Of a DNA stretch of 19,832 nt, positions 1 through 16,531 are shown piece by piece. Within the stretch, counting starts at the first letter, position 1. Each line of letters begins with the position of its first letter. The notes under the pieces are model-generated. The model saw only the letters and a program-made list of their open reading frames with translations, was not told the DNA's origin and ran no database searches. Origin of the DNA: Deltaproteobacteria bacterium (GTDB lineage: Bacteria; CG03; SLGR01; JBDRKX01); the NCBI GenBank assembly GCA_048634875.1, contig JAIVZN010000016.1, positions 1-19,832 on the forward strand, read 5' to 3'. The translations under genes and the position numbers were made by a program.

Positions 1-1296
1 GTTGGTGGAAATGCTACTATATTGAATAATGCATGGGGCGGTATTTCAAAGAAGTTAGACATTATAGATAATCTAACTGCATCTCTTTTTGTTGGCCGTG
101 GGTATACAGGCGCGCTAACATCAATCGGCGGTCTTGGTTTTAATGCCGGTAACAATGACCCGTGGTTTTCTGATGTTACTGGTATTGGCGCTACTACATT
201 CCTTGCTACTAATCTTTTTGCATTGGCTCCGGTTGGGAAATATGATGTCTTATTGTCATACTCTGCTGACATCGCAGATATTGGCGCAGCGCTCACATAT
301 GCATCCTTTTCACAGAATGACAAAAATCTCCCATTGAATTCAGGTGCAGTAACTGGCCCGATTCCTGCCGGTACACTTGAAGATACGGAAGAACTCAAGT
401 CGTCTGATATGGGAATAGCCATCGGCGCAAGGAAAAATGATATCGGCCCTATCTCATCTTTGGATGTTGTTGTTTCTATGAATATGCTCAATGCTGAAAA
501 TACTGAAGACAGAAATCAGTATGTTTTAGTCGGAGCGGTAACTACAGCCAGGAATAGTATAGATAATAAATTTGAATTAGATAATGGAATGAATTTAAAT
601 ATTGGTGCAAGGGCAGTTATTGAAAAAGAAGATGCAAAGAAGATACTGGTCTTAAATTACTTTTCACAGGATGTTTCAAATAAATTTACAACGCAGATAG
701 ATGGTGATCTTGATGGAACTCTTGTTGGTGTAGTTGATACTGATAGAATACAGACCAGGGAAGAAAAAAATACAACTTTATCAATCGGTGCAGCCATGAA
801 CAAGAACATCTCAAAAGAAACATTGCTGATCTGTGCCCTCAGTTATAACCGGACAAAAACTATTGTTAATGCAGAGGAAGAGAATAAAAACATAGCAAAC
901 ATTGTTGGTGTATATGAAGCATATAATTGGGAACAAATAAGAACTACGCTTCCTCTGAACCTTGCAGTTGAACATGTGATATCAAAAGCAGTTACAGCAA
1001 GATTAGGTGTTGCAAAGAATATCATGAACAAACGCACTGTCACCATAGATGATCCTGATTACATATTAAATGCAGCTGGAACAGCCTGGGTAGAAGATTA
1101 TGGCGATGCCTCTAATGAGGATGTCAACGATCTTGTTGGTGCAGCCGTAGTTACAATTGGTGTCGGAATAAAGCCACTTAAAAACCTGGTAATAGACGCT
1201 CTGGTAAGACAGCAGCTTCTCTTTACAGGCGGTTTTCTTGCAAGTGGTATTCCTGAAACACTTGCCGGACAGGTTACAGCTACTTTAAAGTATTAA
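1..1296 (+). CDS. 5'-partial hypothetical surface/outer-membrane-like protein. The frame is open to the window start; the first in-frame ATG is at 22. Composition is Gly/Ala/Thr/Asn-rich and the protein ends in ...TATLKY.
   Basis: Uninterrupted frame-1 ORF from nt 1. Alternating small and hydrophobic residues and a C-terminal aromatic residue are typical of beta-barrel or surface proteins. A strong terminator follows. No specific family was recognised. Confidence 0.5.
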   Translation, partial: VGGNATILNNAWGGISKKLDIIDNLTASLFVGRGYTGALTSIGGLGFNAGNNDPWFSDVTGIGATTFLATNLFALAPVGKYDVLLSYSADIADIGAALTYASFSQNDKNLPLNSGAVTGPIPAGTLEDTEELKSSDMGIAIGARKNDIGPISSLDVVVSMNMLNAENTEDRNQYVLVGAVTTARNSIDNKFELDNGMNLNIGARAVIEKEDAKKILVLNYFSQDVSNKFTTQIDGDLDGTLVGVVDTDRIQTREEKNTTLSIGAAMNKNISKETLLICALSYNRTKTIVNAEEENKNIANIVGVYEAYNWEQIRTTLPLNLAVEHVISKAVTARLGVAKNIMNKRTVTIDDPDYILNAAGTAWVEDYGDASNEDVNDLVGAAVVTIGVGIKPLKNLVIDALVRQQLLFTGGFLASGIPETLAGQVTATLKY

Positions 1297-1320
1297 AGAC
1301 ACAAATTAACCTTCCTTATA

Positions 1321-1357
1321 ACCCTGGTTCAGAAGCTCATCTGAACCAGGGTTTTTA
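1321..1357 (+). terminator. Rho-independent terminator: 12-bp perfect stem (ACCCTGGTTCAG / CTGAACCAGGGT), 8-nt loop, then a T-run
   Basis: Read directly from the sequence: accctggttcag-aagctcat-ctgaaccagggt-ttttaatt, immediately 3' of the stop at 1296. Confidence 0.75.
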
Positions 1358-1365
1358 ATTAAAAA

Positions 1366-2160
1366 ATGAAAATTTATTATTTTTCAGGAACAGGCAATAC
1401 TTTATTTACAGCAAAAATAATAGCTGATGAGCTGAAAAATAAAGGTATGGATACATCCATTGTTAATATTGAATCCATTAAAGATGAGATAAGTAATATA
1501 GATTATGATTTTATACTTATGTTTCCTGTATATGCATATGGCCCGCCTAAGATTATAAACAAGTTTATAGAAAAATTACCCCTTCAGGTGAGAGGGGAAT
1601 TTAATGTTTACTTAATTTTAAATTATGGACTTTTATCAGTAAATACCTATTCTATAACAGCTAATCTTTTGAAAAAGAAAGGCTATAATGTAAAATACTC
1701 TAACGGGGTAAGAATGCCTGCAAATTACATAAACCTTTACAACCCACCGAAATTAAAGACCTCAGTAAAAAGAGTTGATAAAGCCATACAAGAATTAAAA
1801 ATTATATCTGATGAAATTTTTCATGGCAAAAGAAATAAGATAAAAAGAGGTTTTATATTACTTCGTTTTCCAATGAAAATAATCTACCTACTGTTTGTAA
1901 AATTTTCAGACAGAATGGGCAGTAATTTCTATGCAGATGAAAAATGTAAGGGGTGCGGTATTTGTGTTAAAGCATGCCCTGCTTCAAATATTAAATTTGA
2001 TGATAATAACAGGCCTGTATGGGATAACCTGTGCGAGCAGTGTGTCAGGTGTATTCATTTATGCCCTGAAGGCGCCATACAGTGGTTATTTCTGACAAAA
2101 AAACGAAGACGCTATAAAAACCCGCATATTAAATTAGAAGAATTAGTCCCTCCGCAGTAA
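1366..2160 (+). CDS. Fusion of a flavodoxin-like domain and a 2x[4Fe-4S] ferredoxin domain (EFR1-type ferredoxin)
   Basis: The N-terminus MKIYYFSGTGNT resembles a flavodoxin phosphate-binding loop. The C-terminus carries two CxxCxxCxxxCP motifs (CKGCGICVKACP, CEQCVRCIHLCP). Confidence 0.7.
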   Translation: MKIYYFSGTGNTLFTAKIIADELKNKGMDTSIVNIESIKDEISNIDYDFILMFPVYAYGPPKIINKFIEKLPLQVRGEFNVYLILNYGLLSVNTYSITANLLKKKGYNVKYSNGVRMPANYINLYNPPKLKTSVKRVDKAIQELKIISDEIFHGKRNKIKRGFILLRFPMKIIYLLFVKFSDRMGSNFYADEKCKGCGICVKACPASNIKFDDNNRPVWDNLCEQCVRCIHLCPEGAIQWLFLTKKRRRYKNPHIKLEELVPPQ

Positions 2161-2217
2161 TACACTTTAAATATTCTTTTACTTGCTTTTTAAAGTAAGT
2201 TTGGATATTATTTAATC

Positions 2218-2718
2218 ATGAGAGAGAAAAATTTCCAGTTAAGACTTAAAGATTTGTCATCAGCAAAACCGCCTAAAAAAATTGTAGGTGTTATAGGCGG
2301 GGCTCAGGCTGACAGAGAAATACTTGAAATTGCTAGAAACTTAGGCAGAGAAATTGCAAAAAACGGATATATCCTTGTCTGCGGAGGACTTGGCGGAGTA
2401 ATGCGTGCTGCCTGCATGGGTGCAATAGAAGCCGGCGGGATAACTGTAGGAATACTCCCTGGAACCGACAGAGAATCTGCAAATCCATATGTTACAATTC
2501 CTGTTGTTACTGCAATGAGCCACGCAAGAAATGCAATAATTGTCAGGACTGCTGATATCCTTGTAGCCATAGACGGAAGATACGGTACTCTTTCAGAGAT
2601 TGCGCTTGCAAAAGCAGTTGGAAAGAGGGTGATAGGGTTGTTTACCTGGGAAGAAGTGCCTGGTGTGGAAATGGTAGAGTCAGTAGAAGAAGCAATCCAG
2701 GTAATTAAAGAAACTTGA
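2218..2718 (+). CDS. TIGR00725-family / LOG-like Rossmann-fold protein (lysine-decarboxylase-like)
   Basis: Carries GVIGGA...ILVCGGLGGVM...AIDGRYGTLSE motifs characteristic of the LOG/TIGR00725 family. A fair ribosome-binding site precedes the start. Confidence 0.7.
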   Translation: MREKNFQLRLKDLSSAKPPKKIVGVIGGAQADREILEIARNLGREIAKNGYILVCGGLGGVMRAACMGAIEAGGITVGILPGTDRESANPYVTIPVVTAMSHARNAIIVRTADILVAIDGRYGTLSEIALAKAVGKRVIGLFTWEEVPGVEMVESVEEAIQVIKET

Positions 2719-3149
2719 AAGTAGTAATTCAAAGAGTAAAGAAAGCTTCTGTTACCAGTGGAGATTATTCTGCTATGATAGCTGAAGGGCTGCTTGTCCT
2801 TGTAGGAGTTGCGAAAGACGATGAGATTAAAGATGTTAATTACATGGTAGATAAGACTGTAAATTTAAGGATATTTTCCGATTCCGCAGGAAAGCTGAAT
2901 TTGTCAGTCAGGGATATCGGGGGAGATATTCTTGCAGTACCTCAGTTTACTTTATATGGAGATTGCCGCAAAGGGCGGAGGCCCGGTTTTGAAAGTTGTG
3001 CGGATAGAGTTAAGGGTAAAGACTTTTTTGATGTTTATGTTAATGGATTAAAGGCTGAAGGCGTGAGGGTTGAGACAGGATTGTTTGGGAAAGAAATGGA
3101 AGTAGAACTTGTAAATGATGGGCCTGTTACATTTATTGTAAAAAGTTGA
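2715..3149 (+). CDS. dtd: D-aminoacyl-tRNA deacylase
   Basis: The protein shows MKVVIQRV...SQFTL-like (PQFTLYGD)...NDGPVTF motifs and a length of ~145 aa. Its TTG start overlaps the upstream stop (cTTGA), indicating translational coupling. Confidence 0.85.
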   Translation: MKVVIQRVKKASVTSGDYSAMIAEGLLVLVGVAKDDEIKDVNYMVDKTVNLRIFSDSAGKLNLSVRDIGGDILAVPQFTLYGDCRKGRRPGFESCADRVKGKDFFDVYVNGLKAEGVRVETGLFGKEMEVELVNDGPVTFIVKS

Positions 3150-3185
3150 AAGAAAATGAGATTGGGAGATTAGGAGACTAAAATA

Positions 3186-5042
3186 GTGAAAATAGGAAAG
3201 TTTTTTTTAGGGGTACTCTTAATCGGTACTCTTCTTCATGGTATTCTGCTTCCTAAAATTTTCATAAAGCCGGATAAGCTGGCTTACCTTCATTACAATT
3301 TCATTAAAGTTTCTGTAAAAGGCAGCCCTGATTTCTTAAAAGATACAGTAGCATGTGTGTATAAAAATGGCGAAAAAGTGACTACTGTCGGTGCGCAGGA
3401 TTGTATTAAATTTAAGTATAATCATGAGAGCAAATTGTGGGAAGGGAAATTTCCTGTACCGTGGGGCGCTGAAGACGGGATTTATACCATAAGGTTACTG
3501 CAGGATAATAAATTAATAGATTGGGAACAAGTATTTTATATTAAGACCAGGATTCCGCATGTGAAATTTAACAGTCCATTAAAAATTTTAGACCTTGAAA
3601 GCATGAAGAGGTTAAAAAGTTTTAAAGTTAAGAATCCATCAGGGGAAAGGGTTGGTTATACCGGAATCTTTGACTGGATAAAGTATATCGGAGGCAACAC
3701 TCTATGGTATATAGCAGGCCAGACAGCTTCTTATAAGAAAAATGATTTACAGGAAGATCGTCCCTGGGTCAAAGATAACCTTAAAACATTAAAGGAATTT
3801 GCCGAAAAAGCAAAAAGTGAAAATATAAATTTTGGAGCGTGGATAAGCTGTTTTAGGGTATTTGGGAAGAGCAGTTTGAAACCCGACTGGTATAATTACA
3901 GTTATAAATTATCAAAAGGTAAAGTTGTAGAAACAAATGGAATATCTATTCTTGACCACAAAAGAGTTGACGACATAATAAAACTTGCTAAAACGCTTAA
4001 TGATATGGAATCAGTTGATTATATAGGCCTGGATTACATAAGGCCCGCAGGCGGAGGGCTTGACCTTGTTGATGAGTTTGTTGAAGCAATGGCAGTTGAA
4101 GTGCCTGATAGCTGGAATGAGTTTTCTAAAACCCGGAGAATGGAATGGTTAGGCAGGATTGTTACCCGCTCAAGTAACAGAAATGTTCCTCTAATAGATA
4201 AATGGAACTGGTGGAGAGCGCAGAGGATATCAAAGATTATAAATTTATTAAAAGAAAAAGGTAATTTAAAAAAGCCTCTCTGGACATTTGTGTTGAGCTG
4301 GGAAATGGGGCACCAGCATGGCCAGGATCCTATTATGTTTCAAGATGCGGGAATAGACCTTATTGCAGTTATGATATATGAGACAGATGGCCCGAGGTTT
4401 GACCATATTATAAGTGAATGGAAGGAGTATTTAAAAGATTTTAATGTTAATATTGTAATAGGAAATCAGTTAGACTGGATTTTACATCAGTATTCAGTTT
4501 ATCCGTCAGGACCTGCGGAGTATGCAAGGAGAATGGAAAAAAGCATAGAATATATAGATGAGACAGGAAATTTAAGAGGTCTTTTTATTCATGATTTTGC
4601 CAGGGCAATGCGTGGAAGGCTTGGTCCGTATACTTCAATGGAGTGGCTCATTGGAGGCGCAAGGGGATTTACTAAATTGTCAAAAAAAGAAAACAGAATA
4701 AAAATTAATATAGATATACCTGATGTAATAAAAACAGATGAAATAATTAAAGCCAGTTTGAAGTTAGAAAATCTTACAGATAACAGTTTAAATAATATAA
4801 ATATTAATTTTCCCCGGTTAAGTGGAATAGAAATATTAAATAATGTAAAATTAATTAATGTTTTGAATGTGAAGGAAACAAAAGAAATTCCATTTAATAT
4901 AAGAGTCAGAGGAAAGCCTTGTTATAGAATGGGGCGCTACATGGTAGGTGTAAGGGCTGTTCATGAAGAAGGTGTATATATTGATTTTAAAAATTTCTGG
5001 GTTAAAGGAGTGTCTTTAGATAACGGAAGCAGTTATAGATGA
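3186..5042 (+). CDS. Hypothetical exported or membrane-anchored protein, 618 aa (GTG start). A TIM-barrel glycosidase-like fold is suspected but not verified.
   Basis: The N-terminus carries a hydrophobic signal or anchor (FFLGVLLIGTLLHGILL). It is a long ORF with no motif I recognise. It is tightly followed by two lipoprotein genes. Confidence 0.45.
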   Translation: MKIGKFFLGVLLIGTLLHGILLPKIFIKPDKLAYLHYNFIKVSVKGSPDFLKDTVACVYKNGEKVTTVGAQDCIKFKYNHESKLWEGKFPVPWGAEDGIYTIRLLQDNKLIDWEQVFYIKTRIPHVKFNSPLKILDLESMKRLKSFKVKNPSGERVGYTGIFDWIKYIGGNTLWYIAGQTASYKKNDLQEDRPWVKDNLKTLKEFAEKAKSENINFGAWISCFRVFGKSSLKPDWYNYSYKLSKGKVVETNGISILDHKRVDDIIKLAKTLNDMESVDYIGLDYIRPAGGGLDLVDEFVEAMAVEVPDSWNEFSKTRRMEWLGRIVTRSSNRNVPLIDKWNWWRAQRISKIINLLKEKGNLKKPLWTFVLSWEMGHQHGQDPIMFQDAGIDLIAVMIYETDGPRFDHIISEWKEYLKDFNVNIVIGNQLDWILHQYSVYPSGPAEYARRMEKSIEYIDETGNLRGLFIHDFARAMRGRLGPYTSMEWLIGGARGFTKLSKKENRIKINIDIPDVIKTDEIIKASLKLENLTDNSLNNININFPRLSGIEILNNVKLINVLNVKETKEIPFNIRVRGKPCYRMGRYMVGVRAVHEEGVYIDFKNFWVKGVSLDNGSSYR

Positions 5043-5048: not shown

Positions 5049-6521
5049 ATGAAGATAATTGAGACCATGAAACAGTATTTAGCAGTTTTTGTTGTTTTTA
5101 TGTCTCTAATTGCATGCGGAACTTCTGATACAGTTAATGTGAGAAAACCGGTTGTAAAGGGGCAGTTTTATCCTGCGGGCTCTTATGATTTGAAGAGAAT
5201 GGTTGATAAGTTTATAAGTGTTCCTGTTAATCTTAAAGGAAAAGAGATTTCAGGAATAATTGTGCCGCATGCAGGGTATGTATATTCTGGGTTAACAGCA
5301 GGCTATGGTTTCAGCGCTGTAAAAGGGAAGAGTTTTTCTACGGTTATACTTATTGGCCCGAGCCACCATAGTTTTTTAGAAAAACCCTGTTCATGTGAGT
5401 TTAAAGAGTGGTCAACACCACTTGGCAATATTAAAGTAGATTATAAGCTTTTAAATGATATTAAAAAAATAGAAATAAATATAAATAATAACATATTTAT
5501 ACCAGAGCATAGTTTAGAAGTTGAGTTGCCTTTTCTTCAGAGGGCATTAAAAGGGGAGTTTAAGATTCTTCCTGTACTTATAAATGAGTATAGAATTGAA
5601 AAAATCAAGCCTTATGCAGAAAAACTTGCACGGATTTTAAAAAATAAAAAAGATATTCTTTTTGTTATGTCAACAGATATGTCTCATTATTACAGAGCTT
5701 CCATTGCTGAAGAAATGGATAAGAAAATTACTGAGGCACTTATAAATAAGGATTTTAAAAAAATAGAAAATCTCTTAATGACAAAGAGCGGAGAACTGTG
5801 CGGCGCAGGCGCAGTAATGCTTGGCCTGTTAACTTTAAACGAGTTAGGCATTGATGAAATTATAAAGCTTCATTATTCACATTCAGGTATGGTTTCAGGA
5901 GATAATTTCAGGGTTGTCGGTTATGGGGCATTTGCTGTATGTAAGGGAGGTAAAAAAGTGGGATATAATAGAGAACAGAAGATTAAACTTCTTGAAATTG
6001 CAAGAAAGACCATGGAAACTTATGTCCGTGAAGGTAGAAGGATAGAGATTGATGTCAAAGATGAAGAACTTAAAGAAGAAAGGGGTGTTTTTGTAACTCT
6101 CCATAAGGATGAGCGTCTCAGGGGATGTATTGGAAATATAATGCCTGTAAACAAACTGTATCTTGCTGTTCAGGATATGGCTATCTCCTCTTCAACAAAA
6201 GATCCCAGGTTTTCACCTGTGAAAGAGAATGAATTAGATGATATTGAGATAGAGATATCCGTGCTTACTGTTCCACGGAAAGTTAAGAGTGCTGATGATA
6301 TTGTTATGGGAAGAGACGGGGTCATTGTTAAAAAAGGATACCGCCAGGGGGTATATCTGCCGCAGGTGGCAACTGAGACAGGATGGAGTAAGGAGGAGTT
6401 TTTAAGCAGTCTCTGTTATTCAAAGGCTGGTCTTCCTCGGGATGCATGGAAGGATGGAATTACTGAACTCTATACTTTTCAGGCAGAAGTATTTAATGAA
6501 AAAGAAATGGGAATAAAATAA
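5049..6521 (+). CDS. Fusion of a Memo1-like domain (AmmeMemoRadiSam protein B) and an AMMECR1-like domain (protein A), with a lipobox signal peptide. An alternative start is at 5067.
   Basis: Memo motifs are present: VPHAGYVYSG, LIGPSHH, MSTDMSHYY. The AMMECR1 motif is LRGCIGNIMP. The N-terminus MKQYLAVFVVFMSLIAC|G has a lipobox (LIAC). Confidence 0.75.
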   Translation: MKIIETMKQYLAVFVVFMSLIACGTSDTVNVRKPVVKGQFYPAGSYDLKRMVDKFISVPVNLKGKEISGIIVPHAGYVYSGLTAGYGFSAVKGKSFSTVILIGPSHHSFLEKPCSCEFKEWSTPLGNIKVDYKLLNDIKKIEININNNIFIPEHSLEVELPFLQRALKGEFKILPVLINEYRIEKIKPYAEKLARILKNKKDILFVMSTDMSHYYRASIAEEMDKKITEALINKDFKKIENLLMTKSGELCGAGAVMLGLLTLNELGIDEIIKLHYSHSGMVSGDNFRVVGYGAFAVCKGGKKVGYNREQKIKLLEIARKTMETYVREGRRIEIDVKDEELKEERGVFVTLHKDERLRGCIGNIMPVNKLYLAVQDMAISSSTKDPRFSPVKENELDDIEIEISVLTVPRKVKSADDIVMGRDGVIVKKGYRQGVYLPQVATETGWSKEEFLSSLCYSKAGLPRDAWKDGITELYTFQAEVFNEKEMGIK

Positions 6522-6563
6522 TAATGAGTAAGAACGCTGGATTAAACCAGGAGGAGTGAAAGA

Positions 6564-6908
6564 ATGAATGGTATGAAATTAATATTACTGATATTCTTGT
6601 TTGGTTTCTTGGGGTGTACATCAATGCAGAAGAAAAATCTGGCAACTGAAAATGGAGTTATAAGCGCTTTATTTAATATTCCCGAGAGTACTGTAGAATC
6701 CTTAAGAACAAAGGGGCTGGAAGATGAACAGATTTTAAAACTGTTGATTATTTCAACAGCTACTTATTTAACTCTTCCTGAAATTTTAAGTATGATGGAA
6801 GACGGGGTAAGCCTCCATGAAATAGCAACTGACACCGGAATTGAGCAGGAAGTGCTTCAGGAAAGATTGGACAAAATTAAAAAAGATTTAACCCGGATTT
6901 TGCATTAG
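6564..6908 (+). CDS. Small hypothetical lipoprotein (114 aa)
   Basis: The signal peptide has lipobox FLGC. A GGAGG ribosome-binding site precedes the start. The last six codons lie inside the 5' arm of the structured element that follows. Confidence 0.5.
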   Translation: MNGMKLILLIFLFGFLGCTSMQKKNLATENGVISALFNIPESTVESLRTKGLEDEQILKLLIISTATYLTLPEILSMMEDGVSLHEIATDTGIEQEVLQERLDKIKKDLTRILH

Positions 6909-7052
6909 GAATGAAGAACCGAGACGATAAAGATGCTATATAATACACAAACAAAAAAGTGAAGTAATACTCGTAAGTATTGATGAGCTTTTTTGTGACG
7001 TAGAATGTGGCATATTTTTCGTCGAATTCCATTGTCTAATGCAAAATCCGGG
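6892..7052 (+). ncRNA. Candidate structured ncRNA, copy 1. It has a 17-bp closing helix, an inner 9-bp helix and a terminal hairpin. Family unknown; 6S-like architecture is possible.
   Basis: Perfect closing helix cccggattttgcattag/ctaatgcaaaatccggg; inner helix acaaaaaag/cttttttgt; hairpin aatact-cgta-agtatt. All three helices covary with copy 2 at 16077-16240, while the loop sequences (ggaatgaagaaccgag, gtagaa.tg, gaattccattgt) are conserved. Confidence 0.5.
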
Positions 7053-7053
7053 T

Positions 7054-9195
7054 TTAAATACTTATAAGAGTAACACATCCGAGACTTAAAATCCCTATAG
7101 CAAGTAAAACATCTATAATTCCCATTACAGGGACCATAATTATTGCTCCAATGCATGCAAATAAAAATCCTGAAAGTATAAGTGTATATAATTTAAGTAC
7201 TTCATTGCTGCTGTTTGCTAATATCAGATAACTGTTTATTCCTGAATATAGAATACTTCCAAAAAGAAATCCCCCGATAAATGTAAATATAAATGTACAT
7301 ACAAATGAAGGCGGGGAAATCATTATTTCAAATACCGCTGCAAGCAGTATTAAGAATAACACTGACAGTGTTAAGAATATTCTGAAAGCAGAAATAAATA
7401 CAGCAGGATGTTTTTTTTCTAATAATATTATTGAAAATATCAAACCAATTGCTGTACCTGCGAGTAAGAGCGGTATAAACCGGTATATCTGTCCTGTGCC
7501 TGAATGAAATGAAACAGTGGTATTATAGAGAAATACAGCAAAAACGAAACCTGCTGCAGGGAGTGTAATCTTTAATTTAGTTTCAATAGTTTTCTTTGAA
7601 AACAGCTTTAAAAAGATTAAAATAAAAACTATCAATATAACATAAATAAAATTAGAGTTAATACTTTCACTTAGATTTATAAAAAAACCGGATAATACTC
7701 CAAATGTATAGAGTAACTCATGCAAGGCAAACTTGAGTGATGCAGGTTTAGTGTCAGTATTGATGGAGACACAATTAATATCTAAATCTTTCATTACCTG
7801 TTCTTTTGAATTTATCTTGTATTTTATAAGTGATGGCGATATATAATCAGGAATATCCTCTAAAGCATTCAAAAACTCCGAGAGAGCCCTGTGTGAAGTT
7901 GTGAAATTGCGGTTGTGCGAGGCAAGAATCTGTATTCTTTTTCCATATGATTCTAATGTATTTGGAAATGTTTTTTTCAGGGTATTGTACGCAGTTGCAG
8001 AAAGGAACTTGCGATTTCTGCTTAAATTTTCTTCACCTGTTTTAATTGCAATTGAAATCATTGAATTATTTGATAACACTGAACTGGTTTCCTTGAAAAA
8101 TTCATTGGTGTAGTATCTGTTAAAAAAAATATTTGTAGGGTCAGGAAGTGTTATGATTACAATGTCAAAAATTTTTCCTTTTTCCAGTTTTTTTATAAAA
8201 CTTCGCGGGTCTGAATTATTTAATATTCTGAGTTTTTCAGGATATGTAAATTTAGCCGGCAGTATTTTCCAGCCTTTCTCAAAACAATCAGGCACAGGAT
8301 TAGCCCAGTAGACATTTTTTATATTTGGATATCTTAAAACTTCTTCAATTATTTCATTCCAGCCGCCAATTACAAGTATGCTTTCTGCCCATGGGTATTG
8401 TAATAAAGATGTATGAACTATTTCCTGTGTATTGTGTGTATCAGGGTATTTAAAAAGTCTTGAATGGTTTATTGAAAATATGTATGTATCTCTCTTTTTG
8501 TGGATATAAAGTTCTCCATATGAAGTTATATCGTTTGATATAAGGGTTGTTTTAAATTCTCTTACAAATGATTTTATACTGCAGTTGATATCTTTTGGTA
8601 TTGAACTGAATATCAGTAAAATCAATGCGGTTGCAATAATTCCATATTTAAATTTTGGCAGAGTTTCATATGCTGTAAAACAAAGGACAATAAATCCAAG
8701 AGCGGTTATTACTAAAGCAGAATATAAAAGTTCAAAACGCCATAAAACTATAATGTCAATTAAAAAGTAAAGAGCAGAACCAAAAAATAAAAATTTCATG
8801 TTCAATTTTTTTGTAAGTAATTCATTAAAAAATATCACAAAAGACAAAGCAACAGGCAGAAAAATAAAAAGCGGATAAATTGTCAATGCGTACCATGGAA
8901 GTGGACTGGAAAAGGATAATCCTAACACAATCTTTTCCTGCGACATCAATATGCAGAAAAAAGGTGTATACATGGAACATAATAATACTGATAGGTTAAA
9001 CAGCCTGTGTTTTTTAAGAATGCCGGTTATATTTTTATAGAAAAGGAAACCTGCTAAAATTTCTATTCCGAAGATGAAGAAAAATACTGGCAGATGAAAT
9101 AGAGGAAGCTGTGATAATATAAAAAAACCGCGGAATATTAATATCAATTCCGCGGCTAAAAATGCTCCGAACAATATCAGTGCGGAGATTGTCAT
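7054..9195 (-). CDS. Polytopic membrane protein (713 aa) with a central spermidine-synthase-like (aminopropyltransferase-fold) domain flanked by N- and C-terminal multi-TM regions
   Basis: About 6 TM helices lie at each end. The central block DIVIITLPDPTNIFFNRYYTNEFF matches the SpeE DVIISDCTDPxGP...LFTxEFY block. The SAM-binding GGGDGG motif is degenerate (ILVIGGWNEI). Confidence 0.55.
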   Translation of the reverse strand: MTISALILFGAFLAAELILIFRGFFILSQLPLFHLPVFFFIFGIEILAGFLFYKNITGILKKHRLFNLSVLLCSMYTPFFCILMSQEKIVLGLSFSSPLPWYALTIYPLFIFLPVALSFVIFFNELLTKKLNMKFLFFGSALYFLIDIIVLWRFELLYSALVITALGFIVLCFTAYETLPKFKYGIIATALILLIFSSIPKDINCSIKSFVREFKTTLISNDITSYGELYIHKKRDTYIFSINHSRLFKYPDTHNTQEIVHTSLLQYPWAESILVIGGWNEIIEEVLRYPNIKNVYWANPVPDCFEKGWKILPAKFTYPEKLRILNNSDPRSFIKKLEKGKIFDIVIITLPDPTNIFFNRYYTNEFFKETSSVLSNNSMISIAIKTGEENLSRNRKFLSATAYNTLKKTFPNTLESYGKRIQILASHNRNFTTSHRALSEFLNALEDIPDYISPSLIKYKINSKEQVMKDLDINCVSINTDTKPASLKFALHELLYTFGVLSGFFINLSESINSNFIYVILIVFILIFLKLFSKKTIETKLKITLPAAGFVFAVFLYNTTVSFHSGTGQIYRFIPLLLAGTAIGLIFSIILLEKKHPAVFISAFRIFLTLSVLFLILLAAVFEIMISPPSFVCTFIFTFIGGFLFGSILYSGINSYLILANSSNEVLKLYTLILSGFLFACIGAIIMVPVMGIIDVLLAIGILSLGCVTLISI

Positions 9196-9196
9196 T

Positions 9197-9400
9197 TTAT
9201 TCCATAGTTATTGCTGATACAGGGCAGACTTCCTCGCATGTCCCGCAACCGGTGCAGTCTTCAGGCCGGGCAAGAATTGAAACATCTGTTTCCATTTCAA
9301 GTGCATTTGTTGGACATTCATCAATACAAATTGTGCATCCTGTGCAGGTATCTGCATCTATTACAGGTTTTTCATTATCTGACATAATTCCCTCCTTCAT
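9197..9400 (-). CDS. Small 2x[4Fe-4S] ferredoxin
   Basis: Two CxxCxxCxxxCP motifs in 67 aa (CTGCTICIDECP, CTGCGTCEEVCP). It lies 1 nt upstream of the membrane-protein gene on the same strand. Confidence 0.8.
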   Translation of the reverse strand: MKEGIMSDNEKPVIDADTCTGCTICIDECPTNALEMETDVSILARPEDCTGCGTCEEVCPVSAITME

Positions 9401-9479
9401 TTTAATTTACTGTAGTTGCAAAGCTTGCGTTGCTTTTGAAAGAAATTGTAACATTGATATAACAAATTTCCATTTTTTT

Positions 9480-9508
9480 TTCAAATTTAATTATATTTTG
9501 CTATAATA
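9480..9508 (+). promoter_or_regulatory. Putative sigma70-type promoter (TTCAAA, 17-bp spacer, TATAAT) for the SPFH-hflX-pgsA-der-plsY-gpsA operon
   Basis: Hexamers read directly from the sequence. They sit ~80 nt upstream of the ATG at 9590 inside a divergent intergenic region. Confidence 0.35.
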
Positions 9509-9519
9509 ACTAAAATTGG

Positions 9520-9576
9520 GTAAAGTGTAAAGAGTGAATTTTTTTTTGCTTTACGTTTTACAGTTAACGCTTTACA
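9520..9576 (+). promoter_or_regulatory. Leader hairpin or operator. GUAAAGUGUAAAG (9520-9532) pairs fully, including G.U pairs, with CUUUACGUUUUAC (9549-9561). A third CTTTACA repeat lies at 9570-9576.
   Basis: A 13-nt inverted repeat separated by a T-rich 16 nt. It is perfect as RNA on the + strand and has 2 mismatches as DNA. It sits between the predicted -10 and the ribosome-binding site. Confidence 0.35.
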
Positions 9577-9589
9577 ATAGGAGGTAAAA

Positions 9590-10552
9590 ATGGGTGCATT
9601 GTTTTTGTTGGTTTTTATTGTTATTGCTGTAGTGGTATTTAATGCCATGTTCGGCTCATCTGAAAAGGAGGAAGGTTCAATGGAAAAAGTTATTGATCTT
9701 AAAGGCGAGGTAAAGAAAAAAGCACATATGATAATTATTGGTGTTATTGCGTTTCTTATATTGATCACAGTTATAAAAGGAATTGTGGTTGTTCCCGCAG
9801 GGCACAGGTATGTTGTATTTAATATTTTTAAAGGGGTGCTGGAAAATGAACTTGATGAAGGAATACATATAATACTGCCATACTTAAATACAGTTTCTTC
9901 ATATGATGCAAGGCTGCAGGAATATACAATGTCAAGCATAAGGGGAGAAGGCAGAGTAAATGCGCCTGATAGTCTGTGGTCTCCGACAAAAGAAGGATTG
10001 CAGGTTGGAATTGACCTTACTGTCTGGTATAAAATTGATCCACAGAAAGTTTCTGTGTTACATCAGGAGATTGGTCCTGCATTTGAATCAAAAATAATAA
10101 GACCTTCAGTACGGTCAACTGTAAGACATCATATATCTAAATATGCCATTATGGATGTGTATTCCAAGAAAAGAAAAGAGATAGAAGATAATATATTTAA
10201 TGATTTAAAAGAGCAGTTAACAGTCAATAATATTTTAGTTGAAGGGGTAAAATTAAGAGATGTGATTTTTAAGGATAAATTTGCTGCTTCTATTGAACAG
10301 AAACAGGTTGCCCAGCAGGAGATGGAAAGATGGGAATATATAAAGAAGCAGAGGGAAAAGGAAGCTGATGCAAGAATAATAGAAGCTAAAGGTAAAGCTG
10401 AAGCTATGAGAATTATTGCAAAGCAACTGAAAGCTAACCCTGATATAATAAAATATAATTATGTTGAAAAACTTTCTGATAATATAAGTGTTATAGTAAC
10501 TGATCAATCAACGATTATGGATTTAAAAGGAATGCTTGACCGGAAAAAATAA
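9590..10552 (+). CDS. SPFH/band-7 (prohibitin/HflK/C-like) membrane protein
   Basis: Strong AGGAGGT ribosome-binding site; N-terminal TM segments; SPFH-domain and coiled-coil (QQEMERWEYIKKQREKEADARIIEAKGKAEAMR) tail typical of band-7 proteins. Confidence 0.8.
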   Translation: MGALFLLVFIVIAVVVFNAMFGSSEKEEGSMEKVIDLKGEVKKKAHMIIIGVIAFLILITVIKGIVVVPAGHRYVVFNIFKGVLENELDEGIHIILPYLNTVSSYDARLQEYTMSSIRGEGRVNAPDSLWSPTKEGLQVGIDLTVWYKIDPQKVSVLHQEIGPAFESKIIRPSVRSTVRHHISKYAIMDVYSKKRKEIEDNIFNDLKEQLTVNNILVEGVKLRDVIFKDKFAASIEQKQVAQQEMERWEYIKKQREKEADARIIEAKGKAEAMRIIAKQLKANPDIIKYNYVEKLSDNISVIVTDQSTIMDLKGMLDRKK

Positions 10553-10555: not shown

Positions 10556-11815
10556 TTGTGGGATTTACAAAACACTGATATTGAAAATACTGTTCTAATT
10601 GGAATAGATTCTCCGGTTTCAGAAGTACCGTTAGATGAGAGCCTCCGGGAATTGCATCAATTAGCTAAAACTGCCGGCGCTAAAGTTTCAGGTAAAGTTA
10701 CTCAGAAAAGGGAACATCCGCATCCTGTATATTATTTTGGCACAGGTAAATTAAAAGAGTTAAAGGATTTTGTTCTTGTCAATAGTTTACAACTGGTTAT
10801 TGTTGATGACGAATTAACTCCAACGCAGGAAAAAAATCTTGAGGAGGAATTAGGTTGTAAGGTAATTGACAGAACACGCCTGATACTTGATATTTTTGCA
10901 ATTCATGCTTCTTCAGGTGTCGGAAAACTCCAGGTTGAATTAGCTCAAATGGAATATTATCTGCCCCGATTAAAAAATATCTGGACTGAGTTCTCAAAAC
11001 TTGGCGGCGGTATAGGAACAAGGGGGCCGGGTGAGAAAAAAATTGAAATTGACCGCAGAATTATCAGTGATAGAATTACTGCAATTAAAAGGAAACTCAG
11101 GATAACTGCTGTTCAGGGAAGGGACCGCAGAAAACGAAGATATGAATCCTTTAAAAAAAACATCTGTTTGGTTGGATATACAAACTCGGGTAAATCTACA
11201 GTAATGAATGTATTAACAGGAGCAGGTGTTGAAGTTGCAAATAAACTTTTTTCTACACTTTCTCCAACTACAAGAAAGTTAAACTGCGGAAAACACGATG
11301 TTCTTTTAACTGATACTGTTGGTTTTATCAGAAAACTTCCGCATCAGGTAGTGGAGGCTTTTATGGCAACCTTGGAACAGGTGAAAGAAGCTGATTTACT
11401 TCTTCATGTTATTGATATTTCATTTGAAAATTACAGGCATCAGATAGAAGCTGTAAAAAATGTATTAATAGAACTTAATGCTATGGACAGGCCGATTTTA
11501 AGAGTGTATAATAAGATTGACAGGACATCCTTCCAGCCAAAAATAAAGGAAAGTAATCCGCCTTCTGTATTTGTATCAGCATTAAAAAATGATGGAATCC
11601 AGGAATTAAAAAATCAGATAGAAAAGCAGCTGGATGAAGGTATAAGTGAAGTCAGGTTCAGGGTGCCTCAGACAAGGCAGGATATTATTAACTCTATATA
11701 TGAAAATTCATGTGTTATTGAACGAAAATATGTGAAGAATGATGTTATCATAAAATGTTATTTAAACAGAGATTTAATTTCTGCATACAGGAGTTATGTA
11801 ATAAAAGGAGACTAA
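10556..11815 (+). CDS. hflX: GTPase HflX
   Basis: HflX N-domain followed by G-domain motifs GYTNSGKST (G1), DTVGF (G3) and NKID (G4). The TTG start lies 3 nt after the SPFH stop. Confidence 0.85.
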   Translation: MWDLQNTDIENTVLIGIDSPVSEVPLDESLRELHQLAKTAGAKVSGKVTQKREHPHPVYYFGTGKLKELKDFVLVNSLQLVIVDDELTPTQEKNLEEELGCKVIDRTRLILDIFAIHASSGVGKLQVELAQMEYYLPRLKNIWTEFSKLGGGIGTRGPGEKKIEIDRRIISDRITAIKRKLRITAVQGRDRRKRRYESFKKNICLVGYTNSGKSTVMNVLTGAGVEVANKLFSTLSPTTRKLNCGKHDVLLTDTVGFIRKLPHQVVEAFMATLEQVKEADLLLHVIDISFENYRHQIEAVKNVLIELNAMDRPILRVYNKIDRTSFQPKIKESNPPSVFVSALKNDGIQELKNQIEKQLDEGISEVRFRVPQTRQDIINSIYENSCVIERKYVKNDVIIKCYLNRDLISAYRSYVIKGD

Positions 11816-11863
11816 GAGATTAGGAGATTAAGTAATTAAGTTTTATGAAAAAACCTAATCTCT
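11815..11863 (+). promoter_or_regulatory. Inverted repeat AGAGATTAGG...CCTAATCTCT (10-bp stem, ~29-nt loop) between hflX and pgsA. It may be an attenuator or processing hairpin.
   Basis: Read directly. There is no convincing T-tract, so it is not called a terminator. Confidence 0.3.
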
Positions 11864-11895
11864 GAATTTCTCTGGAAAGTGGAAGGTTGAAAGTG

Positions 11896-12423
11896 ATGAA
11901 TTTAGCGAATTATATAACAATTTTCAGGTTAGTTATGGTCCCTGTTTTTCTGATATTAATTTCAGGGGAATTCTACCCGGCAGCATTAATTATTTTTATT
12001 ATAGCAGCAGCAGGTGACGCTGTTGATGGATTTATTGCAAGAAAAACAAAATCCATTACACCGTTAGGAAGATTTATTGACCCTATGGCTGATAAACTGC
12101 TTCTTGTGTCGGCATTTGTGTCACTGACAATTTTAGGAAAGATACCTGTCTGGCTTACAGTTATTGTAATCTCAAGAGATATAATATTGTTTGTAGGGTG
12201 GTTAGGAATTTATATTGTTACCGGCGTAAAATCCATTAACCCGAGCATTGTAAGTAAAATTACAACTTTCATACAGATGGTTACAATAGTTGCAGTAATG
12301 CTGAATATGCACATAAAAGATTTTATTTTTAATATTGCTGCGTTATTGACAACTATTTCAGGGTTACATTATGTTATAAGAACAGCAGTGAAACTGCCAG
12401 AATACATAAATTCCAATGATTAA
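11896..12423 (+). CDS. pgsA: CDP-diacylglycerol--glycerol-3-phosphate 3-phosphatidyltransferase (CDP-alcohol phosphatidyltransferase family)
   Basis: Carries the motif DAVDGFIARK...G...DPMADK (D-G-x2-A-R...G-x3-D-x3-D) and multiple TM helices. The ATG is at 11896 with a GGAAGG ribosome-binding site; the track start at 11887 is a TTG alternative. Confidence 0.8.
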   Translation: MNLANYITIFRLVMVPVFLILISGEFYPAALIIFIIAAAGDAVDGFIARKTKSITPLGRFIDPMADKLLLVSAFVSLTILGKIPVWLTVIVISRDIILFVGWLGIYIVTGVKSINPSIVSKITTFIQMVTIVAVMLNMHIKDFIFNIAALLTTISGLHYVIRTAVKLPEYINSND

Positions 12424-13774
12424 AACTATTGCAATAATAGGAAGACCTAATGTAGGTAAATCAACTTTGTTTAATACTCTTATTAATAGAAAAGAGGCTC
12501 TTACATCTCCAAATCCGGGATTGACCAGGGACAGAACATATTCGTATTTTAACCCGGAGGGTAATCTTAAATATTTGCTGATAGATACAGGCGGGTTTAT
12601 GTTAGGTACAGAAAAACCACTTGTAGAGAAAGTTAATATTCAGGTAGATGTAGCTATCCAGCAGGCGGATTTACTGTTATTTCTTGTTGATGCAAAAGAA
12701 GGTCCTGTACCAATGGATGTGGACATAGCGCAAAAACTGAGAAAAACTTTTAAACCTGTTATACTTGTAGCAAATAAGGCGGATATGCCTGAAAGAGATA
12801 TTCATTCTAACGAGTTTTTTGAGCTTGGATTTGGTGAAGTAATAGCTGTATCTGCTCTTTTAAAGAGGAATATGTCAGGTTTAATTGATAAGATAATAAG
12901 TAAGCTTCCTGATAGTGTTGAAGATAAAAAAACAAATGGACATCTGACCCTTTCGGTTGTCGGTAAACCCAATGTAGGGAAATCAACTTTAGTAAATAGA
13001 ATGGTTGGCGAAAAGAGAGTTATTGTTGATGAAGAGCCCGGCACAACAAGGAATCCTGCAAAATGTTATCTTGAAATAAATGGAAAAGAGTGGGAACTTG
13101 TTGACCTTGCTGGAATATCCAGAAGAAAAAGAGGAAAAGATGAAGAAGATGTTATCAGTATGGTTGCAGCGCGCAGGGAAATTGAACGATCGGATGCCTG
13201 TATATTTCTTCTTGATTTAACGCAAGGCTTGTCATTTGTTGACAGCCGTATTGCAGGCTGGATAGTGGAAACAGCAACCCCGGTAATAATTGCTGGAAAC
13301 AAAAAAGATTTAATTGAGGAAACAGAGGAAATGGAGGAATCATATTTTCTGAGTTTAATTGAACAGATGCCTTTTATGGATTTTGCGTCTTTTGTTATGA
13401 TTTCAGCAAAAGAAGGTCAGGGTATAAAAAGAATTCATGAAGAACTGGGCAAAATTATGAAAAACTCATTTAAGGAGATACCGCAGGAAGAACTTGACTT
13501 GCTCTTAAAAAAAATAATCAGCAAGCGGCCGCCACCGAAAGCAGCAAATGTCAGGCCACGGGTTTTAAAACTCTATCAGGAAAGTGTAAATCCGCCTGTT
13601 TTTAAACTGCGCATTAACCATTATAGGCTTGACAAAATTCCCCAACATTGGAAAAATTATGTAAGAAATTCAATATATAAAGAGTTTGATTATTATGGTG
13701 TGCCATTAACTGTAAAATTTATTCCTCACATAGGACGAAGAGCAGGAAAAGGGATAAGGATTAAAAAGCAATGA
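12416..13774 (+). CDS. der: Ribosome-biogenesis GTPase Der (EngA)
   Basis: Two tandem G-domains (GRPNVGKSTLFN; GKPNVGKSTLVN) plus a C-terminal KH-like domain. Overlaps pgsA by 8 nt. Confidence 0.9.
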   Translation: MIKTIAIIGRPNVGKSTLFNTLINRKEALTSPNPGLTRDRTYSYFNPEGNLKYLLIDTGGFMLGTEKPLVEKVNIQVDVAIQQADLLLFLVDAKEGPVPMDVDIAQKLRKTFKPVILVANKADMPERDIHSNEFFELGFGEVIAVSALLKRNMSGLIDKIISKLPDSVEDKKTNGHLTLSVVGKPNVGKSTLVNRMVGEKRVIVDEEPGTTRNPAKCYLEINGKEWELVDLAGISRRKRGKDEEDVISMVAARREIERSDACIFLLDLTQGLSFVDSRIAGWIVETATPVIIAGNKKDLIEETEEMEESYFLSLIEQMPFMDFASFVMISAKEGQGIKRIHEELGKIMKNSFKEIPQEELDLLLKKIISKRPPPKAANVRPRVLKLYQESVNPPVFKLRINHYRLDKIPQHWKNYVRNSIYKEFDYYGVPLTVKFIPHIGRRAGKGIRIKKQ

Positions 13775-14355
13775 GACTGATTAATTTAATAATTTATGCA
13801 GTTTTAGTATTTCTTTTAGGTTCCATACCATTTTCCTATATAATAACCAGGTATGTCGGAAAGAAAGATATAAGAAAAATAGGCAGTGGAAATCCGGGAG
13901 CGACAAATGTTGTCAGGGCTCTTAATATATGGTATGGGTTATTGGTTTTATTTCTTGATACGGGGAAAGGATTGTTACCTGTATATTTTGCCAAGCAGTC
14001 TAATAATCCTTTACTTGTGGTTGTAGTTGCATTAGCTGTTGTCCTTGGCCATGACTATTCACCTTTTCTTGGATTTAAAGGCGGTAAGGGTGTGGCAACA
14101 AGTACAGGAATATTTATCATACTTGCTCCTGTTCCCACAGTGCTTGTTGCTATCATATTTTTTCTTGTAACAAGTATTTTTAAATTTATATCTTTTGGTT
14201 CAGTCTTAGCTTCATTTTCATATCCAATAGTTGCATATCTTCTTGGCTATACCGAGTATTTGTGGCTTGCAATAGTGTTAGGCGCATTGATAATTTATAA
14301 ACATAAAGAAAATTTAAAAAGGTTATGGCATGGAAAAGAAAAAAGAGCAATATAA
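13771..14355 (+). CDS. plsY: Glycerol-3-phosphate acyltransferase PlsY
   Basis: GSGNPGATNV...HDYSPFLGFKGGKGVATS motifs and a polytopic membrane profile. Overlaps der at its ATGA stop/start. Confidence 0.85.
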   Translation: MRLINLIIYAVLVFLLGSIPFSYIITRYVGKKDIRKIGSGNPGATNVVRALNIWYGLLVLFLDTGKGLLPVYFAKQSNNPLLVVVVALAVVLGHDYSPFLGFKGGKGVATSTGIFIILAPVPTVLVAIIFFLVTSIFKFISFGSVLASFSYPIVAYLLGYTEYLWLAIVLGALIIYKHKENLKRLWHGKEKRAI

Positions 14356-15352
14356 TATTGCAGTTTTAGGCGCTGGAAGCTGGGGAATAACACTGGCAAA
14401 CCTGCTCTATGAAAATAACAATAAGGTTACTCTATGGGAGTTTGCCCCGCAGCAGGCAGAAAAATTAAAAAAAATCCGAACTTTTGTTTCTTTAAAAGGT
14501 TTTAAGATTCCTGAGAGTATAAACATTACAGATTCTCTTAAAGATGCAATTGTTGATTCAGATTATATAGTTATTTCCGTTCCGTCTTCTGCCATAAAAT
14601 CACTGGCAATTGAACTTGCTGCCCTTAACATAAATTCTTCAACAATTATTGTAAGCACAATTAAAGGTTTTGAAAGAACAACTCTCAAGAGGCCATCAGA
14701 GGTCTTAAGGGATTATCTTGGCAGTAACAGCCACATTGCTGTTTTGTCAGGTCCAAGTCATGCTGAAGAGGTAGTAAGAAAAATTCCAACAGCAGTAGTT
14801 GTAGCTTCAGTTAATTCAAATACAAATATAAAGTTACAAAAGCTGTTTTCAAACCTTTATTTCAGAGTCTATACTTCCTCTGACATAAATGGTGTTGAAC
14901 TTGGTGGAGCTCTTAAAAATATAATAGCAATAGCTTCAGGCATATCAAGCGGTTTGAAGTTAGGAGATAATACAAGAGCTGCTTTAATAACAAGAGGGAA
15001 TGCAGAAATTGCCCGGCTTGGTATTGAACTCGGGGCAAAGAGAACGACTTTCAGCGGGTTATCAGGTATAGGGGACTTAATAGTCACCTGTTTTTCTGAA
15101 TATTCAAGGAATTTCAGGTTTGGAAGGTATATAGGGCAGGGCTATAGTTTTGATGAAGCGCTCCAGAGAATTGATACAACAGTAGAAGGTATTAATACTA
15201 CAAAAAGCTGTTATAAACTTTCAAAGAAACTTAAAGTTCAGATGCCTGTGTGCAGTAAAGTTTATGAGACGCTTTTTAAAGGTAAATCTGTAAATATAGC
15301 ATGGAAGGAGTTAATGCTGAGACCTCTGAAAAGTGAAGATTTTGGTAGATGA
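14330..15352 (+). CDS. gpsA: NAD(P)H-dependent glycerol-3-phosphate dehydrogenase
   Basis: N-terminal Rossmann motif VLGAGSWGITLA and a GpsA-like C-terminal domain. Overlaps the plsY 3' end. Confidence 0.85.
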   Translation: MEKKKEQYNIAVLGAGSWGITLANLLYENNNKVTLWEFAPQQAEKLKKIRTFVSLKGFKIPESINITDSLKDAIVDSDYIVISVPSSAIKSLAIELAALNINSSTIIVSTIKGFERTTLKRPSEVLRDYLGSNSHIAVLSGPSHAEEVVRKIPTAVVVASVNSNTNIKLQKLFSNLYFRVYTSSDINGVELGGALKNIIAIASGISSGLKLGDNTRAALITRGNAEIARLGIELGAKRTTFSGLSGIGDLIVTCFSEYSRNFRFGRYIGQGYSFDEALQRIDTTVEGINTTKSCYKLSKKLKVQMPVCSKVYETLFKGKSVNIAWKELMLRPLKSEDFGR

Positions 15353-15384
15353 AAATAATTGAGCCCATTATTTTAGGTCTGCAA

Positions 15385-15423
15385 CCCCTACGCAAAACTG
15401 TAGGGGCTTGATTTATCAAGCCC
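15385..15423 (+). terminator. Two overlapping GC-rich hairpins (cccctac-N8-gtagggg and gggcttga-ttta-tcaagccc) downstream of gpsA. A weak terminator or attenuator; no clear T-tract.
   Basis: Read directly from the sequence. Confidence 0.3.
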
Positions 15424-15443
15424 GATAAAGGAATTATTTACTT

Positions 15444-15710
15444 ATGAATAAAAATGATATAATAGAAAGTGTGGCAAATGTAACATGCGCTAAAACAGAA
15501 GCAAAAGACTCTGTGGAAATGTTCATAAAGACTGTTAAAGAAGCATTGAAAAATGGCGAAAAAGTTACAATATCGGATTTTGGAACTTTTTATGTAAAAT
15601 TCAGGAAAGCGCGGATAGGAAGGAATCCAAGGACAGGTGAAACAATTGACATACATCCGCAAAAAGTAGTAAAATTTACCCCAGCTCCTAAATTAAATAA
15701 AGAATTATAA
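15444..15710 (+). CDS. HU/IHF-family nucleoid DNA-binding protein
   Basis: GFGTFYVKFRKARIGRNPRTGETIDI matches the HU/IHF arm motif (GFGxF...RxGRNPxTGE). Length 88 aa. Confidence 0.8.
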   Translation: MNKNDIIESVANVTCAKTEAKDSVEMFIKTVKEALKNGEKVTISDFGTFYVKFRKARIGRNPRTGETIDIHPQKVVKFTPAPKLNKEL

Positions 15711-15730
15711 GGAAATAAAAGCATTTACAC

Positions 15731-16078: not shown

Positions 16079-16240
16079 CCCATTTGTTGCAATAGGAATG
16101 AAGAACCGAGATGAAAAAGACAAGTATTTATACAAGCCAAAAAGTGAAAAGCATACTGAGTAGTATGGGCAAGCTTTTTGGCGCCGTAGAAATGCTTGGA
16201 TTTTTTGTAGAATTCCATTGTCTATTGCAATAAATGGGTT
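16077..16240 (+). ncRNA. Candidate structured ncRNA, copy 2 (same family as 6892-7052)
   Basis: Closing helix aacccatttgttgcaatag/ctattgcaataaatgggtt (19 bp, one G.U pair on the + strand only); inner helix gccaaaaag/ctttttggc; hairpin catact-gagt-agtatg. The loop blocks are identical or near-identical to copy 1. Confidence 0.5.
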
Positions 16241-16246
16241 TAATAT

Positions 16247-16321
<75 letters not shown>

Positions 16322-16523: not shown

Positions 16524-16531
16524 GTAATGGT

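Follow-up and report, generated by a model that had tools for sequence, protein, structure and literature searches.

A hairpin-forming palindromic element inserted at TTTAA sites is probably a miniature mobile element of an uncultured Elusimicrobiota lineage

We analyzed a stretch of 19,832 nt, contig JAIVZN010000016.1 of assembly GCA_048634875.1 (in the following termed the window), which contains two related copies of a short palindromic element. A previous sequence-only reading had located both copies on the + strand, and this was borne out, with exact limits at positions 6892-7052 for copy 1 (+, 161 nt) and 16079-16238 for copy 2 (+, 160 nt), 9 kb apart. Copy 1 has the termini CCCGG...CCGGG and forms a rod-shaped hairpin over its whole length, with the loop CGUA at 6972-6975; copy 2 has the termini CCCAT...ATGGG and the same rod layout. 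The two copies are ~76% identical over 186 columns (blastn) and score 177.6 bits (copy 1) and 197 bits (copy 2) with the covariance model R1. Terminal inverted repeats (TIRs) are present: the 22-nt arms at the extreme ends are 95% and 91% complementary in the two copies, and the inverted CCC...GGG termini are found in both. Within the window, the conserved blocks GGAATGAAGAACCGAGA and GAATTCCATTGTCTA are confined to these copies (the search with GGAATGAAGAACCGAGA tolerated 3 mismatches, with ~0.1 chance matches expected). Furthermore, copy 1 and copy 2 alike are bracketed by a direct repeat of the pentamer TTTAA; these repeats, and an open reading frame (ORF) of 114 amino acids that ends inside copy 1, had been overlooked in the sequence-only reading.

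Copy 1 lies between two convergent genes. Upstream is the 114-aa ORF (6564-6908, +), the last codons of which (TRILH, stop) lie within the element; the encoded protein is lipoprotein-like, with a lipoprotein-type signal peptide (...FLFGFLGC), and has no Pfam match. Downstream, a gene for a 713-aa membrane protein, spermidine-synthase-like according to Pfam, is encoded on the opposite strand (7054-9195, -). The left TTTAA repeat (6887-6891, +) represents a target-site duplication or a target motif, and the sequence across the junction is AAAGATTTAA/CCCGG. The right repeat (7053-7057, +) holds the stop codon of the 713-aa gene (TTA on the + strand, TAA on the - strand).

Relatives of the window were found via the Der GTPase and are Elusimicrobiota metagenome-assembled genomes, in which the gene order of the whole window is conserved. 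The closest are the loci L029, L030 and L031, with 94-97% nucleotide identity. Positions 3-941 of L029 align to window positions 5953-6891, and positions 937-4517 align to 7053-10550; the two alignment blocks overlap in L029, so that its single TTTAA corresponds to two in the window. L029 contains the exact empty site, AAAGATTTAAATAC, where the window reads AAAGATTTAA, followed by the 161 nt of copy 1 and by TTTAAATAC; the compared junctions are AAAAAAGATTTAAATACTTATAAGAG in L029 versus AAAAAAGATTTAA, 161 nt and TTTAAATACTTATAAGAG in the window. Copy 1 is likewise missing from the outgroups L023, L025 and L034, in which the convergent genes overlap or sit 22 nt apart, showing that the polarity of the change is insertion and not deletion.

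The insertion altered the genes on both sides. The L029 orthologue of the small ORF encodes 119 amino acids and ends in ...KKDLNTYKSNTPET before the stop codon, and the window protein ends in ...KKDLTRILH; in other relatives the C-termini are ...SLKY (L023) and ...NLAKYSR (L025). From this comparison, the insertion swapped out the ancestral C-terminus of the small ORF. The C-terminus of the 713-aa protein (...LGCVTLISI) is identical in L029, and the stop codon of its gene owes its regeneration to the duplicated TTTAA. In the relatives, the small ORF and the convergent 713-aa gene overlap by ~12-35 nt at their 3' ends; in the window strain they have been split by the element.

Copy 2 is located between a merR-family gene directly upstream (15731-16078, +; Pfam MerR_1, 1.3e-19), which is preceded by an HU/IHF gene, and a tRNA-Gly(CCC) gene directly downstream (16247-16321, +; detected with ARAGORN and Rfam), which is followed by tRNA-Pro(GGG). 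The left TTTAA repeat (16074-16078, +) includes the merR stop codon TAA, and the right repeat (16239-16243, +) ends 3 nt (TAT) upstream of tRNA-Gly. The gene order hflX-(pgsA)-der-plsY-gpsA-hup-merR-tRNA-Gly(CCC)-tRNA-Pro(GGG) is kept across distant Elusimicrobiota, as seen in a comparison of window positions 10556-16462 with the loci L023-L026, L029, L033 and L034. Seven relatives with MerR proteins that are 62-84% identical (L023-L026 and L032-L034) are devoid of copy 2, and in these tRNA-Gly starts 0-30 nt past the merR stop codon, an arrangement implying co-transcription of the tRNAs with a protein-coding operon. Relative to the seven, the window contains 165 extra bases between the merR stop codon and tRNA-Gly. 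Copy 2 is shared only with L029, L030 and L031, with six differences: two turn a G.U pair into a G-C pair, three fall into loops and one breaks a pair. The amount of change in copy 2 since its insertion is close to the neutral rate between the two strains.

In the relatives, merR ends in GA(G/A)ATTTAA, GAGATTTAG or GAGATTTGA, and in L029 the end is ATATAA, a synonymous change. The ending ATTTAA, seen in L026, L032 and L033, is the ancestral form; with the ancestral end GA(G/A)ATTTAA, both insertion targets read AGATTTAA. The two copies are discrete insertions into 5'-(AGA)TTTAA-3' sites, and in both cases the TAA stop-codon region at the 3' end of a gene was hit. Since both copies follow (AGA)TTTAA, the site would look alike for a pentanucleotide-specific insertion and for a 5-bp duplication. 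Upstream of copy 1 and copy 2 lie unrelated ORFs; it is the element itself that recurs and not a module of gene plus RNA. Judged from the occupancy of the orthologous sites, copy 1 inserted after the split from the ~95%-identical relative and copy 2 earlier.

The only promoter-like site near copy 2 was found upstream of merR, at 15646-15675. Because the position of tRNA-Gly in the relatives leaves no room for a promoter, and because this is the sole promoter-like site, copy 2 is almost certainly transcribed on the + strand, and tRNA-Gly is probably co-transcribed through it.

The gene-end location and the resemblance of the left flank, (A/G)TTTAAC, to the RYYYAAC core suggest a comparison with integron attC-like or other site-specific recombination sites that trail gene cassettes. 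Such sites are, like the element, imperfect hairpins immediately behind an ORF, with structure more conserved than sequence. However, the right end, GGGTTTAA, gives no matching GTTRRRY core, no integrase is present, and the element is surrounded not by cassettes but by housekeeping genes in conserved synteny (der, plsY, gpsA, hup, merR and the tRNAs). attC sites are 57-141 nt long, a range exceeded by the 161 nt of copy 1. The conserved synteny already contradicts this explanation, and we regard its probability as negligible.

To describe the structure of the element, both copies were folded as RNA. The minimum free energy is -70.7 kcal/mol for copy 1 (z = -11.8) and -68.3 kcal/mol for copy 2 (z = -10.6), compared with an average of ~-30 kcal/mol for shuffled sequences; none of 200 shuffles matched the fold of either copy. 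The sequence-only reading had described three helices around a large internal loop with strands of ~40 nt and had considered the conserved blocks unpaired. Neither feature was recovered: the predicted structure is a rod in which seven helical segments comprise 63-64 pairs, and 126-128 nt are paired out of 161 and 160 nt. No strand of an internal loop exceeds 6 nt, and there is no large central bubble. The rod starts with a 24-bp closing helix carrying one bulged G, continues after an AA bulge with GAA/UUC and a CCGA(G)/(A)GAA internal loop, followed by two helices of 8-9 bp and by UAC/GUA, and is completed by a 10-bp A/U-rich helix and a tip of 6-7 bp with a 4-nt loop. Most of the conserved-block sequence is engaged in pairing between blocks (GGAAUG/CAUUgUC, GAA/UUC, AAA run/UUU run and UAC/GUA), making the element one nearly continuous rod. 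Half-elements, by themselves, do not fold, with energies of -0.1 to -3.5 kcal/mol and z values between -0.9 and +1.2.

The compensatory helix changes pointed out in the sequence-only reading proved to be more extensive than noted there. They were assessed with one common structure in an alignment of three sequences, namely copy 1, copy 2 and the copy 2 orthologue of a close relative. Across the 62 pairs of this alignment, 96.8% of the cells are paired and 14 pairs are altered on both sides (five in the closing helix, seven in the middle helix, and one each in the A/U helix and the tip). Control registers slid by 1-3 columns gave just 1-2 two-sided pairs and 39-49% pairing. A further compensated pair in the A/U helix is masked by a MAFFT slip of one column. 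The loop and bulge positions are common to both copies. The hairpin is clearly maintained by selection.

The two strands of the element were compared with respect to their folding. In all three sequences, the RNA fold of the + strand is 14-17 kcal/mol better than that of the - strand; with DNA parameters the values are -40 (+) versus -37 (-) kcal/mol, a difference of only ~3 kcal/mol. The sequence-only reading had argued for the + strand from a G.U pair that copy 2 has in its closing helix. This pair exists (alignment columns 13/161), but in a strand-symmetric alignment of the arms the G.T and A.C oppositions are balanced, with ratios of 6:5, 5:5 and 4:6. A strand assignment based on 11 G.U pairs versus 0 A.C 1x1 mismatches in the minimum free energy structures was undone by the same strand-symmetric count. 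The unpaired positions coincide between the copies on the + strand, whereas mismatches on the - strand are copy-specific and lie inside helices. Because of this sharing of loop positions and of the energy difference the + strand is still favored, and it is likely the relevant single strand.

The strong structure signal, the covariation, the conservation of internal-loop and bulge sequences between the copies, and the better RNA fold of the + strand would all be expected from an independent structured non-coding RNA (ncRNA) gene with two paralogues, either 6S-like, as the sequence-only reading had proposed, or another protein-partnered RNA. 6S RNA (RF00013 and relatives) indeed resembles the element in its length of ~160-190 nt, in being a rod with a long closing helix and in possibly occurring in two copies. 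However, Rfam searches with both copies matched only tRNAs at the gathering thresholds and at E<=10 returned no 6S or other bacterial family but just plant miRNA-precursor rods far below threshold. The rod contains no central bubble resembling an open promoter, and no sigma-70-like promoter or intrinsic terminator was found in or beside either copy; there is no T-run after the rod and hence no terminator was called. In addition, copy 1 is missing in the ~95%-identical relative, with a clean TTTAA duplication in the window, copy 2 is missing in seven relatives, and no homologue was detected in species-representative genomes or JGI metagenomes; a recent insertion with a flanking duplication is not the pattern of a vertically inherited stand-alone gene. 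The sequence-only reading had itself named a lack of homologues in related genomes as counterevidence, and the orthologous sites of related genomes are without copies. The presence/absence pattern already largely refutes a conserved ncRNA gene, which we consider very improbable. The earlier claim that selection acts on RNA structure rather than on DNA repeats or transposon ends holds as far as the hairpin is under selection; the contrast with DNA repeats and transposon ends does not agree with both copies being lineage-specific, TTTAA-flanked insertions.

Other functions and further occurrences of the element were searched for. Protein coding was rejected, as the conserved block lies in different minus-strand frames in copy 1 and copy 2; phmmer with the 51-aa minus-strand ORF of copy 1 gave no match among 1.84 billion protein representatives. 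A hammerhead-like core, UUGAUGAG, of copy 1 is not conserved in copy 2, and the CCGA/GAA loop did not fit the K-turn consensus upon inspection by hand. A DNA pattern of two blocks had no match in the collection of species-representative genomes, and a pattern of this type gave 20 matches in JGI metagenomes, all of them chance matches inside coding sequence and without a hairpin. The 17-mer block was absent from viral contigs, and blastn of the copies against plasmid and phage collections gave no match. In 142 kb of Elusimicrobiota loci, the covariance model R1 recovered the known copies only; nhmmer detected nothing in the relatives and blastn-short only short chance matches. Look-ups of identical proteins, aimed at extending the contig and at sampling further IS21 copies, yielded short contigs only. 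The family seems to be confined to this species-level lineage, or is elsewhere too divergent for searches with exact blocks.

The combination of a discrete 161-nt unit with TIRs, a direct repeat, an empty site, unrelated contexts and no coding capacity points to a miniature non-autonomous mobile element. We therefore consider it probable that the two segments are copies of a small, non-autonomous palindromic element of the MITE type (miniature inverted-repeat transposable element), which inserts at TTTAA sites in an uncultured Elusimicrobiota lineage. Several of the features that define MITEs were found, namely a size within the range of ~50-800 bp without a transposase gene or conserved ORF, TIRs, and a flanking repeat that is single in the empty site. 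As judged by sequence comparison, the element has not been catalogued before and has no similarity to catalogued elements. It is comparable to the bacterial MITEs that form a hairpin over their whole length (ERIC/IRU, Neisseria Correia/NEMIS, RUP and Coxiella QMITE), which are likewise non-coding, ~100-250 bp long, equipped with TIRs and flanked by short AT-rich direct repeats at the insertion site. These elements, too, insert in intergenic regions or at gene ends, are co-transcribed and form a long stem-loop of 5' end and 3' end (PMC2229807, PMC10969869). In contrast to them, the 24% difference between the copies described here is compensated almost completely along the entire rod, beyond what binding of a transposase to TIRs demands, and the same pentamer TTTAA flanks both copies.

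With copy 1 having inserted within the ~5% divergence that separates the window from L029, its difference of ~24% from copy 2 indicates a third, unseen donor copy. There was too little time for copy 1 to evolve at its present site; the compensated differences must therefore have arisen among propagating copies, and the hairpin is thus selected in the life cycle of the element itself.

The element would be mobilized by a transposase encoded elsewhere in the genome, which could be either a DDE enzyme generating a 5-bp duplication or a single-strand (HUH) enzyme inserting beside TTTAA. True TIRs together with the TTTAA repeat favor the former. The hairpin might be needed for mobilization, with the ends paired or brought together in a single-stranded intermediate; alternatively, it might keep the transcribed insert harmless, such that only copies with compactly folding transcripts are tolerated.

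As a variant of this mobile element, a derivative of IS200/IS605 (a palindrome-associated transposable element, PATE) or a REPIN-like element could be moved as single-stranded DNA by an HUH (Y1) transposase. Insertion would then occur 3' of TTTAA without duplication, the right TTTAA would be the element's own cleavage motif and the hairpin would be the substrate. Selection for the hairpin among propagating copies fits a single-strand intermediate, both copies lie on one strand of the window, and the + strand folds better than the - strand. TTTAA has been documented as the insertion site and TAM of an IS605-type element of Sulfolobus islandicus (PMC11043419), and with IS200/IS605 ends and PATEs the element may share a sequence-specific pentanucleotide target (TTTAA) and a dependence on single-strand secondary structure. 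IS200/IS605 ends, however, have separate subterminal hairpins and no TIR, whereas the ends of this element are true TIRs that pair with each other and its arms alone form neither subterminal hairpins nor repetitive extragenic palindromic (REP) palindromes, as shown by the folds of half-elements. Genes for TnpA or TnpB are missing nearby, the strand asymmetry is small with DNA parameters, and G.T and A.C oppositions are balanced.

REPINs, which are REP doublets mobilized by REP-associated tyrosine transposases (RAYTs), are also similar to the element in being non-autonomous hairpin formers of ~100-160 nt that persist in one lineage, with end modules that are conserved and a middle part that varies more but is compensated. 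In REPINs the hairpin frequently shows compensatory changes (PMC3116915), and a hairpin of the whole unit with such changes is found in the element as well. It differs from REPINs in that its halves are not REP palindromes, in its flanking TTTAA and true TIRs and in its Elusimicrobiota host, and no TnpA or RAYT gene was seen in the examined loci. Overall, we consider mobilization by an HUH enzyme possible but unlikely.

Several points weigh against a MITE-like element. Only two genomic copies and their orthologues were examined, and a high copy number is a hallmark of MITEs; no further copy was found in the 142 kb of relatives or in the genome, metagenome, viral, plasmid and phage collections. 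Neither a cognate transposase nor a full-length insertion sequence (IS) with matching ends was found on the local contigs. Moreover, classical cut-and-paste transposition by a DDE enzyme does not require compensated internal helices, and, instead of a true duplication, the two flanking TTTAA could represent one target motif and one motif borne by the element. Elements of the IS1380 family have CC termini and 4-5-bp duplications and provide a lead, but only a lead, to a parent IS.

A further, rather unlikely reading is that the element belongs to a new type of hairpin-dependent mobile DNA, in which the whole rod is recognized as a single strand by a hypothetical Elusimicrobiota enzyme and inserted at TTTAA, often at TAA stop codons. 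In this case the conserved asymmetric loops (the AA bulge, the CCGA/GAA loop and the bulged G) would serve as a code for recognition by a protein. Co-option of the transcribed rod as a trans-acting RNA is a related possibility.

Returning to the MITE-like element, after insertion it would be transcribed as an extension of a 3' untranslated region (3'-UTR) or of a tRNA leader. Transcripts of MITEs form stable stem-loops and affect neighboring mRNAs; this has been described for Correia, ERIC and other MITEs, whose co-transcribed stem-loops act on adjacent mRNAs (PMC2229807, PMC10969869). The stable rod of ~62 bp in copy 2 could, like ERIC and Correia elements, serve as a 3'-end stabilizer or as a target of RNase III. 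It is therefore conceivable that the element is a domesticated cis-acting RNA module (a 3'-UTR stabilizer, terminator or RNase III site) that benefits the adjacent genes, its mobile origin being incidental. Both copies are located exactly at gene 3' ends and are co-oriented with the upstream gene, copy 2 has been kept in two diverged strains with only one of its six differences breaking a pair and two converting G.U to G-C, and an influence of MITE hairpins on mRNA stability is known (PMC2229807). On the other hand, locus-specific selection would not have had time to act on copy 1, the missing T-run leaves no terminator to be called, and the relatives manage without the element at both loci. 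As TTTAA includes TAA, the hits on stop codons may reflect nothing more than target bias. We regard domestication as improbable.

Downstream of copy 2, the tRNA region shows further differences between strains. In L029 (~10590-10650, compared with window positions 16322-16385), the spacer between tRNA-Gly and tRNA-Pro is ~30 nt longer and contains repeats of GTAGTGG, which, from the alignment, would be a small indel or duplication polymorphism between strains. L032 carries ~150 nt extra between the two tRNAs (~1150-1320), bounded by a repeat of the tRNA-Gly 3' end (TCGTCGCCCGCTCCA); this insert has the appearance of a scar or a duplicated att site left by a small integrative element.

Two nucleotides after tRNA-Pro(GGG), the window contains a complete element of the IS21 family (16465-18932), with istA at 17266-18816 and istB at 16532-17269, both on the - strand, and 50-nt terminal inverted repeats (TGTAAACGGAAAG...). 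IS21 was rejected as the parent of the palindromic element, as its TIRs (TGTAAACGG...) are unrelated. L029 is without the IS at this point and its downstream sequence is different, showing that the window strain has also been rearranged there. Between the right end of IS21 and the last position of the window (18933-19832), an uninterrupted reading frame encodes a highly repetitive Lys/Glu-rich protein (...KEEYKEERKELRKEYK...) with tandem repeats of 33 nt and 54 nt; this gene seems to have been truncated or displaced by the IS21 insertion.

Taken together, these results show that pairs of sequences with conserved loops and covarying stems are insufficient to establish an ncRNA gene, as palindromic mobile elements show the same pattern. 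Here, the orthologous empty site settles the question between a mobile element and an ncRNA gene and removes a false lead. The element is a variation on the known themes of MITE, REPIN and ERIC. An element targeting TTTAA can hit TAA stop codons, and in this lineage its insertions rewrote the C-terminus of a protein and lengthened the leader of a tRNA precursor. With a clean view of the site before and after insertion, the data would document an active miniature mobile element in the Elusimicrobiota, a phylum that is little studied and mostly uncultured, and the compensated divergence among propagating copies would make it a useful case for studying the need for a hairpin in mobility.

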